Below, piece by piece: positions 11,432 to 58,202 of a stretch of 64,000 nucleotides of DNA. Location: the IMG/VR virus record IMGVR_UViG_3300011337_000669. The stretch is one strand, 5' to 3'. The DNA is from a virus. Its lineage: Duplodnaviria > Caudoviricetes. Positions within the stretch are counted from its first letter, which is position 1, and each line of letters begins with the position of its first letter. The position numbers and the translations under genes were made by a program. Below the pieces are notes generated by a model that was not told where the DNA came from, searched no databases, and worked only from the letters and a program-made list of their open reading frames with translations.

Positions 11432-11488
11432 ACAGTTATAAATATAATTCATTTATCGTGGAAAATAAAATAATTAGACACAAATATC

Positions 11489-11550
11489 CAAAAAAGGGGT
11501 TGGGGATTAGAACGACCGAAGGGAGAACGGACGGGGCGGTATACGAATAA
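11489..11550. repeat. Dispersed intergenic repeat, copy C
   Basis: Identical to copy A over 40 bp. Confidence 0.9.
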
Positions 11551-11573
11551 CAACAGATAAGATACGAATATCT

Positions 11574-11906
11574 TTAACCTTTATCCACAGATTTAACAGG
11601 AAGTTTTGTATTTTCCTCAAACCATTTAATAAAAATAGATTTCCAATGTTCACCAAACAAATCCGTGAGATAATCATAAGTTTCGTCAGGAAGATAAACC
11701 TTCCCCCTTTTTTTCAAAGCTTTCCATAAGTAATACATATGGTCGTAAGGATTATCCTCATCCCAAAATAAATAAAGTTCACCATAGTCGTCCTCCAATT
11801 TCTCAATATATTCTTCAGGATTCCATCCATCATAGGGAGTGAGATTAGAATTCAAAAAATCAACTATTACTTCTCCCAATCTACTACTTGTAATAATATA
11901 TTTCAT
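11574..11906 (-). CDS. MKYIITSS-leader family protein
   Basis: Start moved to MKYII; TATTTAT 6 nt upstream. Confidence 0.7.
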   Translation of the reverse strand: MKYIITSSRLGEVIVDFLNSNLTPYDGWNPEEYIEKLEDDYGELYLFWDEDNPYDHMYYLWKALKKRGKVYLPDETYDYLTDLFGEHWKSIFIKWFEENTKLPVKSVDKG

Positions 11907-11929
11907 AATTAATAAATACCCAAAACTTC

Positions 11930-11992
11930 CCAAAAAGGGGATGGGGATTCTCACGACCGAAGGGAGAACGGACGAAGCGGTATACGAATAAC
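11930..11992. repeat. Dispersed intergenic repeat, copy D
   Basis: CCAAAAAGGGGATGGGGATTCTCACGACCGAAGGGAGAA; shares GCGGTATACGAATAAC tail with copy C. Confidence 0.88.
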
Positions 11993-11994
11993 GA

Positions 11995-12735
11995 CTATAA
12001 TATCTTATCCCCCTTACTCATATTATCCTCACCCCATAATGGCTGAAGATTTGTATAATGACATAACCCGATTAACTCTTCTTCAGAAGTTGCAGAAGAT
12101 AGGGGAATTATATGGTCAATATGCCAATCACCCCTATTCTCCCAAGACATACCATCAACAAACTTTGATTCCAAATATTCCTTGAACTCATCATATGTCA
12201 TCCCAACAACCTCTTCCGTTGAAGTATCAAATTTCTTATACCCCTGTCTCCTAAATGAATTACGAATTAAATTACGAAGACGAACCTTCATAGCAAACAT
12301 CTCATCTTCATTCCATCTACGCTTCCATCTCTCATATTCACTCTTTCTCTTTTTTTGCCTCTGCATTTCTTTCCACTCATCAGTCTTATAGTATTCCATA
12401 CGTTTTTTCCACTCCAAACTTTTTTGAAGTTTCTGTTCCTTGATAAGCATCCTCTCTTCTTTCCGAACTTCCTTCAATCGATTCAGTTCATCAGTTATTT
12501 TTTTCTTCTCCTCTCTGATAATACGATTCCCCTCCACAATTTTTGACTCATATCGTTTCTTTGAGTCTTTTATCTTTTTCTTCCCCTCCTCAGTTTGTCT
12601 CCATTTTTTATGATTGCCTCTATTAATCTCTACACGACATTTTTTACAAGCACCTTTTGGTTTTCCCTTTTCATAGTAATATTCTGTTAGGGGTAAATCT
12701 AATTCACATTTACAGCATAATTTTGTCTCATCCAT
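11995..12735 (-). CDS. HNH endonuclease with N-terminal Cys motif and K/E-rich coiled coil
   Basis: WHIDHIIPLSSA...LCHYTNLQPLW.EDN..KG; TATATTTG 5 nt upstream of ATG. Confidence 0.85.
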   Translation of the reverse strand: MDETKLCCKCELDLPLTEYYYEKGKPKGACKKCRVEINRGNHKKWRQTEEGKKKIKDSKKRYESKIVEGNRIIREEKKKITDELNRLKEVRKEERMLIKEQKLQKSLEWKKRMEYYKTDEWKEMQRQKKRKSEYERWKRRWNEDEMFAMKVRLRNLIRNSFRRQGYKKFDTSTEEVVGMTYDEFKEYLESKFVDGMSWENRGDWHIDHIIPLSSATSEEELIGLCHYTNLQPLWGEDNMSKGDKIL

Positions 12736-13554
12736 ATAATCAAATATAGGGGATTATCCCCCAAAAATAAATAACTATATAATCAATAGGATTACCTTTT
12801 TTATGAAAAATTTTCCAAAAATTCTAAAAAGGATATACACACCTTTTTCAAACAAGGGGTCGTGTTTATAGAAACTAACACCCCACAATATACGGTAGGG
12901 GGAGAAACCCAAAAAAGGTCATTTTTAGCTGCAAAATTTTATTCGGGTAACATAGGGAATTGATGACCATAATATGACATTCTGACAGGAGGGAAGGGGG
13001 GATTCCTATACGAAGGACAGAAAGACAGGAGGGGGGAGGGGGGTATATCGTATGCCAAACCCCTCCCATCTAATATATTTATTTATCCCCCCCTCCCTAT
13101 GAGTTATCCACCTCCTTATAGTCGGGGATAAATACTTATCCACAAGATATACATTGTTAGCACAATGGTTCCCGTATTCGACCCCGACCATAGATGTGTA
13201 TAAGTTGTGGAGAAATAAATGGTGATATGTTTGGTGGGGTGAATAATAATGACGACCTTTATGTACTTGATGTTCTGTCGTACGGATAGATAAGGAGGCG
13301 GGGTAAGTAATTACTCGGGAGAGTGGACTCCGACACACCCCAAACAAAATAATATATTGTGGATAAGTGGTATGACAGATAGTCAATAATAAAAAGTACG
13401 TAGGGGTAACCGAAGAATGTTCTGTATAACAATACAATTATATCTTGGAATCCTCTGTCCTATTGATCATAATCCAGATTATATAACATGGTTCTATAAC
13501 TCCCCCAACCTTTTATTGTATTATATGGGGAATGTTTAGATGACCCTTAAAAAT

Positions 13555-13989
13555 TTAGATAGACATGAAAGGTTGTTCCCCTGGCTTACGATTGATATGC
13601 CATGTCCCCAATTCAATATTACGATTACCGAACTTAAACTCATCAGGAAGGGTGGGGTTCTCAGATACATCTTTGATGGTTCTCCTTATATCATCACGGA
13701 CTCTCTTGTATTCCTCATACTCCATATCGTTAATAAGGTTGGGGTACGAATAGTCAATATACTTCCCCTCATCAACCAACTCCTGAATCCATTTCTTCGT
13801 CTCATGACCATAAGCCTCAGAAAACTCGGTGGGGTCGAACTCAAAGTTCAAAAAAATTGTTGTATAAAGATCCAAGTCCTCCTGTCTAACGAACACATCC
13901 TTAATCCATGGGAACTCCCTCATCAATGCTCTCTTAATCAACTTGAAAGCATAAACGTTATATATATCTTCAGGTGTTGTCTTCCCCAT
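13555..13989 (-). CDS. Hypothetical protein inside the DnaA-box region
   Basis: 144-aa ORF with composition typical of the window. Confidence 0.65.
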   Translation of the reverse strand: MGKTTPEDIYNVYAFKLIKRALMREFPWIKDVFVRQEDLDLYTTIFLNFEFDPTEFSEAYGHETKKWIQELVDEGKYIDYSYPNLINDMEYEEYKRVRDDIRRTIKDVSENPTLPDEFKFGNRNIELGTWHINRKPGEQPFMSI

Positions 13990-14003
13990 GTCATTACCGT
14001 TTA

Positions 14004-14237
14004 TTATAAATACTCAGCCTTTATCATCTTTTGACATACCTCCACAATTTCCTTGGGGATTATCTCATAATTACTCACCTCATATAATCTCTCAATCTTC
14101 GCATCAACACATACCCAAGCATCCATACTCACAGGCTTACGTTGAAATGTTCTCTTCGCTCTCTCAAAATACAGAGAACCAACCTCTTGATCATTGAAGG
14201 AAATAATGAACCGTATCTTATCATCCACCTTCTCCAT
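14004..14237 (-). CDS. Hypothetical protein
   Basis: ORF; start uncertain (14237 or 14258). Confidence 0.55.
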   Translation of the reverse strand: MEKVDDKIRFIISFNDQEVGSLYFERAKRTFQRKPVSMDAWVCVDAKIERLYEVSNYEIIPKEIVEVCQKMIKAEYL

Positions 14238-15034
14238 TATATATACTAAATCTATCATGTGGATAAATATACATTCGGAACATATAAAAATAAAGGAGAA
14301 TCATTGTGCCAACAATGTATCCACACACTGACATTCTGTCTGTAGGGGGCAACATGGTGAATACCGACCGAAGGTTGGGGAAAACTTTTTCCATTGTGGA
14401 TAAATAAATAGGGGGAAAAACTTGACTTTGTCATAATGTCAGGGGAGCGTTACATGGGGGATAATCCCTTTGAGGGGTTTTGGGTCCCCCACTCTTTACC
14501 ACTTTCCCCCACCATTAGTACTGAATTCATGGCTGGTTATAGTGTAGTGACCACTTTTTTCCCCCTGACGATAGTGTGAAGACCATATTTTTACTATACG
14601 TAAAACCTAGCAAAAAAAGGAATAGTAAGTGTAACCCCGCGTGAGTGAACGTAGTGAACCTTTAACCCCCCCTTCAACGAATCCCATAGGTTATTATGGT
14701 TCATATGACCTGACTATTATTGTCCCCTTCAACGACATATCGTAGATGGTGGGAGAATGTGGGAGTTATACCTGATGGGGTTTAATTGTTTACCGAAGGT
14801 ATTGTTTTGTACCCCATAGGGTATAGGACTATATGTGAAATAATATATGTTAATTCGGATCCCCACCGAATAGGTGGTGCTTATTTAACATCTCACCTTC
14901 ACACAATATCACCATGTCATTCGATGTCCTGTCATTTGGCGGGGGACAATAGTTAGGCGGGGACAGTTTGTCCCCATGTATAACTCTCCAAATGTGTGTT
15001 AAAAAATGAGTTTTGGAAGATTATACAACAAGAG

Positions 15035-15129
15035 AGAGAATGAGGAATTAATGAACGAATGAAATGGTCGGGAACACGACAGTGTTCCTCATCCGACCAT
15101 GGAGTGAGTGAATTAATTCCTCATTCTCT
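15035..15129. other. Long nested hairpin (structured RNA or cruciform candidate)
   Basis: 18-bp perfect outer stem 15035-15052/15112-15129; inner stems ATGGTCGG/CCGACCAT and GAACAC/GTGTTC. Confidence 0.7.
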
Positions 15130-15137
15130 ATAATATA

Positions 15138-15163
15138 AAAACCCCCACCTTTTGGGTGAGGGG
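15138..15163 (-). terminator. Intrinsic terminator
   Basis: CCCCCACC-TTTTG-GGTGAGGGG; same core at 20347-20376. Confidence 0.7.
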
Positions 15164-15172
15164 ATAAAATCT

Positions 15173-15829
15173 TTAGAAACTATAGCCGATTCCGACATTA
15201 ACTGAAGTAAATTTAGAAATAACCAATCCACCTCGGAAGATAAACGAGTCACTTAAATTCTTCATGTATCCGAAAGTAACATAAGGAGTTATTTTCCTCT
15301 CGTTAATATCTTTCGATTCTACATATGTTTCGATATTCGGAGTTGGATTGGTAGAAAGTTTAGGAACCGAAGGTGTTCCAATCGACCCTATCGACCCTTG
15401 GGTAGAAACATAAGTAACATTACTTTGTTGAGGTGTAACTATTTTCTCCATTAAAACATTCTCGAGGCCTAAAGAAAGGCTGGATTGTATTCCCCCTCCT
15501 ATATAAATTCCTTCTTTGTTTTTATAAAACATACCGAAACTATTGGAAACTCCACGCTCAATCCATTTTCCTACTTTTCCATTGATGTAATTTTGTGGAT
15601 AAATGTCATTCGTGACAGTCGCAGTCCTGATATATTCAAAACCAATGTTGTTATACTCTACCCATCCACCATAAGCAAAACCAGTAGACCAATTCATATC
15701 CCCCATCATAAGTGGGGCACCAAACATAGGCCCGATAGAACCTACAGGTGATACAGTAACTGAATGTTGTTGAGAAAAGGATGCGATGGTGATAAACCAT
15801 AGAAGTACAATAAAGAAAATCTTTTTCAT
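15173..15829 (-). CDS. Putative outer-membrane beta-barrel protein
   Basis: Signal peptide MKKIFFIVLLWFITIASFSQ; alternating beta-strand pattern; C-terminal VGIGYSF. Confidence 0.7.
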   Translation of the reverse strand: MKKIFFIVLLWFITIASFSQQHSVTVSPVGSIGPMFGAPLMMGDMNWSTGFAYGGWVEYNNIGFEYIRTATVTNDIYPQNYINGKVGKWIERGVSNSFGMFYKNKEGIYIGGGIQSSLSLGLENVLMEKIVTPQQSNVTYVSTQGSIGSIGTPSVPKLSTNPTPNIETYVESKDINERKITPYVTFGYMKNLSDSFIFRGGLVISKFTSVNVGIGYSF

Positions 15830-57404: not shown

Positions 57405-58202
57405 TTACAAATAATCGAACAGAGAAGCCGTTTCGTTTCTTAATTTTCTCAAAGCCTTTTCTTTAATCTGTCTTACTCGTTCCTTAGTCAAATCAAAGTC
57501 ACTACCGATGTCCTCAAGAGTTCTGGTTGAACCAGATAACCCAAAATAATCTTCGATGATAACCTTTTCCCTTTCATCCAAAACATTTAACATGTTCAAA
57601 AGTTTTTCTTTCAGGGTGTCATCTGTAGATAAATTTTTATCCGCCGAATCTGCATTAGGGTTAACCAAAATGTCCAACAGTGTATCCCCTTCTTCATTGA
57701 GGGGATTATCCAAATTAATTGTATAAGGTAAACTCACCATTTTATCGGGTAATGCGACTCCAGCTTTTTCAAGTTCCTTCTTAGCTTTATGAAGTTCTTG
57801 AACAACGTTTACTGGTAGACGAATAGTACGAGCATTCTCATTCAATGATTGCAAGATAGATTGTCTAACCCACCATACCGCATATGAAATAAATCTAAGT
57901 CTTTTCGTCCAATCGAAATTCTCAATCGCCTTCATTAGACCAAGATTACCCTCAGCAATCAAGTCACTCAAATCTAAACCTTGATTTTGATATTGTTTTG
58001 ACACTGTAATCACAAAACGTAAGTTTCCTACCAACAATTCTTTTTGGATTTCTTTCTTCTCTTCTTCTGTGATAACACCTGACAACATTCTCTCAGCTAG
58101 CTCACGCTCCCTCTCAGGAGTCATGACTCTAATCTTTCTGATGTCTTTCAGATAATGACTAATCTCTTCTTGATTGATTGGAATTGATGATTTTTCTTTC
58201 AT
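57405..58202 (-). CDS. Sigma-70 family factor, short Bacteroidota RpoD-like
   Basis: YLKDI; NLRFV..V.KQYQNQGL.L.DLI.EGNLGL; RFISYAVWWVRQSILQ; TKERVRQIKEKALRKLR. Confidence 0.95.
   Translation of the reverse strand: MKEKSSIPINQEEISHYLKDIRKIRVMTPERERELAERMLSGVITEEEKKEIQKELLVGNLRFVITVSKQYQNQGLDLSDLIAEGNLGLMKAIENFDWTKRLRFISYAVWWVRQSILQSLNENARTIRLPVNVVQELHKAKKELEKAGVALPDKMVSLPYTINLDNPLNEEGDTLLDILVNPNADSADKNLSTDDTLKEKLLNMLNVLDEREKVIIEDYFGLSGSTRTLEDIGSDFDLTKERVRQIKEKALRKLRNETASLFDYL

Follow-up and report, generated by a model that had tools for sequence, protein, structure and literature searches.

DnaA-box clusters and enclosed genes at the locus

The window analyzed here is the whole 64,000-nucleotide stretch of the IMG/VR virus record IMGVR_UViG_3300011337_000669, in which two groups of sites matching the bacterial DnaA box bracket two small genes. 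Alignments with relatives delimited the whole conserved module at 12747-15162, with the minus strand as its functional orientation. The module consists of a non-coding upstream block, DnaA-box cluster 1, the genes for proteins of 84 aa and 144 aa, cluster 2, and a tail of hairpins made of G and C runs. The stretch 12736-15172 is otherwise poor in open reading frames (ORFs), as stated in the preliminary description of this DNA, and is the GC-richest part of the window (0.37-0.40 vs approximately 0.33), harboring 16 of the window's 43 runs of at least five G or C. Comparison with relatives, described below, strongly supported the premise that the sites are DnaA boxes under purifying selection and not chance matches.

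An exact search of both strands with TTATCCACA (relaxed DnaA-box form, TTWTNCACA) detected seven perfect boxes in the window, starting at 11581 (+), 13136 (+), 13358 (-), 14258 (-), 14395 (-), 15594 (-), and 47577 (+). Six of the seven fall within 11.6-15.6 kb, the one at 47577 being the only other. When the sequence was shuffled with preservation of dinucleotides, 1.15 boxes per window were expected and seven were reached in none of 100 shuffles, which bore out the earlier estimate that such a cluster was unlikely by chance. The box coordinates in the preliminary description were all reproduced, namely the perfect boxes at 13136-13144 (+), 13358-13366 (-), 14258-14266 (-), and 14395-14403 (-), TTATACACA at 13195-13203 (-), and the one-mismatch boxes at 13104 (+), 13206 (-), and 14317 (+), as was the arrangement of two sub-clusters flanking two small genes. 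The perfect boxes at 11581 (+) and 15594 (-), just beyond the range considered at that time, had been missed. The former (11581-11589) is located 1.5 kb downstream of the module, and the latter (15594-15602) lies inside a 218-aa ORF adjoining the module and is found at the same place in the syntenic relative L006 (position 2363).

Cluster 1 was examined in an alignment of 28 unique related sequences. It comprises four sites, U1 to U4, starting at 0, 19, 57, and 95 bp with the third inverted, which corresponds to spacers of 10, 29, and 29 bp. U1 (14395-14403, minus strand) is a perfect TTATCCACA and is invariant in the 28 sequences. The palindrome position upstream of it (14429-14441, minus strand) reads TGACATTATGACA in the window and TGACA-N3-TGTCA in the relatives, and holds a -35-like hexamer. 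The U2 position (14376-14384, minus strand) is TTTTCCACA in 27 of the 28 relatives and TTTTCCCCA in the window, because a 21-nt insertion (about 14358-14378) with a TTCG mini-hairpin, present in this phage only, splits the box. Between U2 and U3, the 13-mer TGACATTCTGTCT (14329-14341, plus strand) matches a conserved near-palindrome, AGACA-N3-TGTCA. U3 (14317-14325, plus strand), inverted with respect to U1, U2, and U4, is perfect in 22 of the 28 relatives; it is imperfect in the window (GTATCCACA) since an inserted palindrome, CATTGT-N4-ACAATG (14302-14317, also found in L026), abuts the box. The AT-rich 19-nt block CTTTATTTTTATATGTTCC between U3 and U4 (14277-14295, minus strand) is identical in all 28 unique sequences. 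U4 (14258-14266, minus strand) is a perfect box overlapping the first ATG of the 84-aa ORF, with a TATTTATA-type motif approximately 10 nt downstream; the site is TTATCCACA in 17 relatives, TTATCAACA in nine, and TTATTCACA in two.

The consensus of cluster 2 begins with a strong box, D1, followed after 16 nt by a weak CCACA site (NNNNCCACA), after a further 2 nt by the strong box D3, and after 9 nt by the strong inverted box D4, so that the starts of D1, D3, and D4 are 36 and 18 bp apart (spacers of 27 and 9 bp). D3 and D4 of the relatives form TTATCCACA-N9-TGTGGATAA. After D4, the consensus continues with a G-run, ATAAATAAATAT, C/G hairpins, a TGTCA-N3-TGTCA element, and a GGGGGGATAATCCCC hairpin. 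In the window, D1 (13358-13366, minus strand), the first box of the cluster, and D4 (13136-13144, plus strand), inverted relative to D1 and D3, are both perfect. The D3 position is occupied by two adjoining degenerate boxes (13195-13214, minus strand), TTCTCCACA at 13206 and TTATACACA at 13195, which an insertion remnant of approximately 140 nt separates from D1. An extra, duplicated D4-like box, TTATCCACC (13104-13112, plus strand), precedes a G-run and the ATAAATAAATAT tract, and the conserved tail of the cluster (12975-13100) contains the 13-mer TGACATTCTGACA followed by hairpins of G-runs and C-runs. The window's copy of the module is thus somewhat rearranged when compared with the consensus, with a split U2, palindromic inserts, an ORF remnant, a degenerate D3, and the extra D4-like box.

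Some of these rearrangements recur in relatives. A second copy of CATTGT-N4-ACAATG is located beside D4 (13152-13167; also in L017 and L036), giving two copies in the window versus 0.02 expected. In some phages only, this insert, with approximately five flanking bases, is found directly beside a DnaA box of either cluster, and may represent either an optional operator or a miniature mobile element inserting next to boxes. In some relatives (L006, 4597-5094; L013, 4945-5412; L004, 4567-4869), optional ORFs of approximately 100 aa and 160 aa also separate the 144-aa gene from cluster 2. Of the larger one, which is intact in L006 and L013, the 3' flank alone persists in the window (13215-13350), and Pfam and PHROG scans of the optional ORFs gave no match. 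The conserved module seems to serve selfish inserts as a landing site.

Neither of the two enclosed proteins belongs to a Pfam or PHROG family. The 84-aa ORF (14004-14258, minus strand) is conserved in all relatives, and its second ATG at 14237 may be the true start. Its AlphaFold2 (AF2) model, of sheet-plus-helix type, was of low confidence, with a predicted local distance difference test (pLDDT) score of 70 and four of the five models below 50. The 144-aa ORF (13555-13989, minus strand) has 99 homologues in public metagenomes with 45-100% identity. The protein is abundant in freshwater metagenomes (99 clusters), has 28 invariant residues, and was confidently predicted to adopt an alpha/beta fold (pLDDT 88). 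Comparison of this model with PDB and the AFDB clusters gave no match better than E 0.2, and tblastn of the protein against 50,697 GenBank phage records, T4 included, gave none.

Conservation of the module among relatives

Approximately 50 loci were compared, of which 12 were obtained by exact protein look-up, 35 were metagenome contigs of the Joint Genome Institute (JGI), and five were from IMG/VR. Both clusters recurred with equal order, orientation, and spacing down to 45-50% identity of the 144-aa protein. Perfect boxes were present at the two expected places in nearly every locus that extended far enough, the cluster 1 group approximately 280-580 bp upstream of the start of the 144-aa gene, just before the 84-aa gene, and the cluster 2 group approximately 620-1000 bp downstream of that start. 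The 35 metagenome loci contained 133 perfect boxes in 105 kb. Box columns of the alignments had lower entropy than the other non-coding columns (0.068 vs 0.322 bits in cluster 1 and 0.297 vs 0.773 bits in cluster 2), as expected for sites kept by selection. The variants that did occur were TTATCAACA, TTATTCACA, TTGTCCACA, and A/GTATCCACA, all of which are known natural variants of the DnaA box.

The conservation extended into the non-coding DNA. In distant relatives, the non-coding block and cluster 1 were 81-92% identical to the window, while the 144-aa gene was only 63-70% identical at the DNA level; the block upstream of cluster 1 (14438-15030, minus strand), considered alone, was 81-88% identical in relatives with the gene at 63-70%. 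This block of approximately 600 nt is rich in runs of five or six G. It had no Rfam match and no RNA covariation, as RNAalifold analysis of 16 sequences found compensatory change in 0 pairs, with a covariation term of -0.66, leaving a structured RNA unsupported. Rfam returned nothing at gathering score and two chance-level matches at the E-value threshold, and searches for tRNA and for canonical G-quadruplex motifs found none. A scan of the window region for consensus sigma-70 promoters remained at chance level overall.

The flanking genes vary between relatives, as does the position in long contigs, and the module is therefore a conserved island in a variable region. Contigs from different samples were also found to end within or right after it, such as those of 59.5 kb and 2.9 kb from ENA (L002 and L003) and of 183 kb and 142 kb from IMG/VR (G002 and G003). 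These ends are likely to be assembly breaks where a block common to co-occurring strains meets variable flanks, although they may represent a physical genome end. Just downstream of the module, the gene at 11995-12735 (minus strand) has a PHROG match to endonuclease VII (E 9e-17) and, weakly, to HNH endonuclease, and is bracketed by two copies of a 73-nt repeat (11482-11554 and 11923-11995, 86% identical).

The complete relative G001 (326,291 bp, CheckV 100%) allowed the genome-wide distribution of the boxes to be determined. It has 11 perfect boxes, a total within the range of composition-matched 9-mers (median 4, 95th percentile 14), and the reversed control pattern occurs twice. Six of the 11 are within 240,101-241,162 (1.06 kb), at 74% of the genome length, and the other five are scattered; no second cluster and no other 1.5-kb window with more than one perfect box was found in this genome. 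Several 9-mer matches thus lie within a few hundred bp, above chance, in both the window and the 326-kb relative. The preliminary description had named as decisive whether the 9-mer is common throughout the genome. It is not so in G001, being concentrated at a single locus, and the observation is stronger than that description could know.

Dense arrays were also seen outside this lineage. The inverted pair TTATCCACA-N9-TGTGGATAA occurs in ten stretches of unrelated IMG/VR phage contigs of 45-55% GC (L080, L081, L083, L086-L089, and L091-L093), each with further perfect boxes. L087 and L089 hold eight to nine boxes in approximately 230 bp, and a three-box unit is present at least five times in one contig of 133 kb (L088/L092). 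The array of L087 is located approximately 0.7 kb upstream of the terminase operon, and that of L091 also adjoins a terminase gene. DnaA-box arrays may be a recurrent feature of phages.

Host DnaA as the probable ligand and possible roles of the module

The runs holding the sequence are river and lake metagenomes. Megablast of the region against the 50,697 GenBank phage records found no close DNA relative, and tblastn of a neighboring 495-aa protein against the same records found nothing. The module-bearing IMG/VR relatives G001-G004 encode the T4-type major capsid protein Gp23 (E 1e-62), gp32, a DnaB-type helicase, and a family-B polymerase (PolB), and the window itself encodes an SbcC-like nuclease subunit and homing-endonuclease-like proteins. 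The element therefore sits in a T4-like giant phage of fresh water that encodes its own replisome. By capsid protein, Flavobacterium phage immuto is the nearest cultured relative (45% identity), and the host possibly belongs to Bacteroidota. The search for the helicase loader gp59 carries no information, as its control matched nowhere. The window additionally encodes DnaJ (48362-49279, minus strand), an RpoD-like sigma factor (57405-58202, minus strand), and a D12-class (Dam-like) adenine methylase (47003-47842, minus strand); the DnaJ is full-length with J, zinc-finger, and C-terminal domains, and the sigma factor has regions 1.2, 2, and 4.

No Bac_DnaA_C domain was detected in the module-bearing relatives by a search that matched 10 control bacteria. 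As the phage clade lacks a DnaA-type DNA-binding domain, the sites are most likely bound by the DnaA of the host. The two box groups most likely represent high-affinity DnaA sites, predicted from their sequences, in the fixed geometry of a cis-acting, host-DnaA-recruiting module, and there is a high probability that host DnaA would occupy them during infection. Rather than a mere sink, a structured nucleoprotein complex is suggested by the fixed geometry, by the palindromes conserved along with the boxes, and by the location of boxes on promoter-like elements.

Every locus has the two genes together with the boxes, and both products are of no recognized family, which would also fit a phage-encoded protein, for example the 84-aa or the 144-aa product, reading the 9-mers, with a merely coincidental resemblance to the DnaA consensus. 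The other palindromes (TGACA-N3-TGTCA and CATTGT-N4-ACAATG) likewise point to additional DNA-binding factors. We regard this explanation as quite improbable. A 9/9 match to the consensus at 6-8 sites, accompanied by variants typical of DnaA boxes, is hard to ascribe to coincidence, neither protein model shows a helix-turn-helix or other DNA-binding fold (the 84-aa model being of low confidence), and the unrelated phages have arrays of the 9-mer without these genes. Together with the lack of a DnaA-like domain in the phages, these exact matches, typical variants, and gene-free arrays support the premise that the sites are kept for DnaA binding.

The relation of the boxes to promoter-like elements bears on what the bound DnaA might do. 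Directly before U1, many relatives have TTGTCA or TTGACA, 17 nt, and CATAAT or TATAAA; the window and some relatives have a TATTTAT motif in place of this element. DnaA acts as a transcription factor at dnaA, mioC, and nrd of E. coli, and host DnaA could similarly repress or activate the two small genes, whose expression would then shift with DnaA titration or with its ATP/ADP state and serve as a timer of copy number or host state. U1 is located at about +1 of the upstream promoter, U4 just before the TATTTATA-type motif and over the first ATG, and these positions of the boxes relative to the promoter-like elements are conserved. A phage-specific TATTTAT(A) motif is also present just upstream of both genes. 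Weak evidence for transcription of the 144-aa gene came from an identical 174-nt metatranscriptome contig falling within it; the RNA-labeled runs gave contigs only, and three of the four are probably DNA, with one real metatranscriptome. A switch of this kind is nevertheless unlikely to be the role of the module, because eight sites in two arrays and more than 1 kb of conserved non-coding DNA go far beyond the need of two small genes, cluster 2 lies downstream of them, and the element before U1 varies among relatives while the box stays fixed.

Returning to the recruitment of host DnaA, a replication-initiation or replication-control locus of these T4-like phages is the role that we favor most among those considered, although only tentatively. 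The occurrence at a single locus in the genome, the deeply conserved non-coding DNA, and the promoter-like TTGTCA-17-CATAAT directly before U1 are in favor of it, as are the likeness to the oriE of T4 and the helper role of DnaA at the origins of P1, lambda, and plasmids, both compared below. In such a mechanism, transcription from the promoter would cross U1 and run on into the box array and the AT-rich, invariant 19-mer, and DnaA on the arrays would bend or open the DNA or stabilize a priming transcript, after which the phage's own helicase and polymerase would take over. Titration of DnaA by the replicated phage copies would be an automatic side effect.

A number of observations weigh against this role. 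A classical AT-rich unwinding element is missing from the module, where the GC content exceeds that of the genome and invariant AT tracts reach 19 bp at most. GATC is not enriched. The cumulative GC skew of G001, a check that the preliminary description had proposed for an origin, merely follows the coding strand, with neither an extremum at 240-241 kb nor a switch at the module. The phage has its own T4-type replisome, which argues against a classical origin of the oriC type, and no T4-type phage is known to require DnaA. The enclosed proteins have no recognizable initiator fold and no homologue in cultured phages, and no adjacent gene encodes a Rep initiator of known family, as the 84-aa and 144-aa proteins lack Pfam and PHROG assignments and the latter has no structural match. 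Flavobacterium phage immuto has no perfect box, and the module is therefore not a general requirement of such phages. According to the DnaA-trio rule, a box is followed within 16 bp by at least three trios on the correct strand and then by an AT-rich DNA unwinding element (DUE) (PMC8287927). A hand check of all eight sites on the consensus found no arrangement of box, GC spacer, and DnaA-trio in the orientation of bacterial origins, and the only candidate, a loosely NTN-patterned stretch following D1, agreed poorly with the trio consensus. A review of T4 replication makes no mention of DnaA (PMC3016281).

The preliminary description had offered two interpretations, a host-DnaA-dependent origin or a datA-like sink. 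Its premise of genuine DnaA boxes held, the position, orientation, and spacing being conserved, while neither the origin nor the sink was shown. The readings as a promoter switch, a DARS-like (DnaA-reactivating sequence) locus, or a T5-like element were absent from that description.

Comparison with known DnaA-box systems

Replication without the host initiator is classically exemplified by the T4-type phages. DnaA boxes are known on the genomes of the phages T5, P1, and lambda, and a full-text literature search found no paper linking DnaA boxes with jumbo or T4-like phages. The conserved sites suggest that these phages recruit or manipulate the replication starter of the host, which is not known for T4-type phages. 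That a T4-like clade has retained eight perfect DnaA sites in fixed geometry despite deep divergence would mean that the host initiator is co-opted for replication, or that DnaA is targeted as a control point of the cell cycle. The two enclosed proteins, abundant, highly conserved, and without known fold, are candidates for DnaA-linked functions.

The module resembles bacterial oriC in its perfect boxes, some of which stand in tandem 2 bp from a weak site, and in the G-rich clusters adjoining a box (PMC8287927). It differs in being GC-richer than the genome around it and in lacking correctly oriented trio arrays, a long AT-rich element, a switch in strand composition, and a dnaA/dnaN neighborhood.

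In the origins of P1 (oriR), lambda, and iteron plasmids, DnaA helps a system encoded by the element itself. Like the module, these origins have small genes and recurring binding sites for proteins in their core, with DnaA boxes at its margins. Here, in contrast, there is no recognizable Rep initiator and no array of 17-22-bp iterons; the TGACA-N3-TG(A/T)CA element occurs three to four times at dispersed positions in the module and not as a tandem array, and neither enclosed protein could be assigned to a known fold. In the oriE of T4, an early promoter is accompanied by repeats at even spacing and by the small genes repEA and repEB, and the mechanism of this origin is unresolved (PMC3016281). 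It shares with the module the T4-type phage background, a locus of non-coding DNA and small genes, an early-type promoter, and the even spacing of repeats, whereas its iterons are phage-specific 12-nt repeats and not DnaA boxes, with no known involvement of DnaA.

Clusters of a few high-affinity boxes in non-coding DNA outside the origin are also characteristic of datA and DARS, although these E. coli loci are chromosomal and not viral. datA has about five boxes in approximately 1 kb with an essential IHF site and promotes hydrolysis of DnaA-ATP. With 6-8 putative high-affinity sites per genome copy in approximately 1.2 kb, the module is of comparable box number and span, and could manipulate the host initiator as a datA-like sink or hydrolysis site, or change its nucleotide state as DARS does, with the effect amplified by phage copy number. 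The DARS core consists of an opposed box pair 5 bp apart and a third box (PMC6868365), and each cluster likewise has an opposed pair beside a neighbor of the same orientation; the same inverted pair recurs in the unrelated phage contigs. Boxes I and II of DARS are 5 bp apart, whereas the opposed boxes here have spacers of 29 bp (cluster 1) and 9 bp (cluster 2). A plain sink has no need of fixed geometry or conserved flanks, and what a phage that encodes its own replisome would gain is speculative. Manipulation of this kind as the role of the module therefore seems rather improbable. Taken more broadly, it is possible, if somewhat doubtful, that T4-like giant phages of one lineage have a DnaA-control locus of their own, either a viral counterpart of datA/DARS or a DnaA-dependent origin, which would reprogram the availability or the nucleotide state of the initiator. 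As the unrelated phage contigs have similar dense arrays, such a principle of DnaA control may be widespread.

The closest precedent is the array of DnaA boxes in the injection-stop (iss) region of T5-like phages, the function of which is likewise unproven. This non-coding region has eight conserved DnaA and DnaA* boxes in two groups associated with inverted repeats, and TTATCAACA, also found at U4 here, is the commonest variant in these phages (bioRxiv 10.1101/866236). A T5-like role in DNA entry or anchoring, in which membrane-associated DnaA would hold the region and thereby pause injection or organize the DNA, would be consistent with these similarities and with the contigs of several relatives that end at the module. 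It is nonetheless very improbable. No terminal repeat was found in the complete relative, where the module lies well inside the genome, its position varies in long contigs, assemblies would be expected to break at the border between a conserved block and strain-variable flanks, and the T5 model is itself only a proposal. T4-type phages, moreover, normally package by headful, without fixed ends.

In both cases, a virulent phage carries a large untranslated region, rich in repeats and palindromes and conserved better than coding DNA, with approximately eight boxes in two groups. The boxes of T5 are paired 3 bp apart in inverted repeats and are located in the terminal repeat next to the first-step-transfer genes. 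Those of the present module, in contrast, have spacings of 10, 29, and 29 bp and of 27 and 9 bp, bracket two genes in a T4-like phage, and share no sequence homology with the T5 region. Beside the unexplained DnaA boxes of T5, the module adds a second, independent group of phages with a precise and testable set of such sites.

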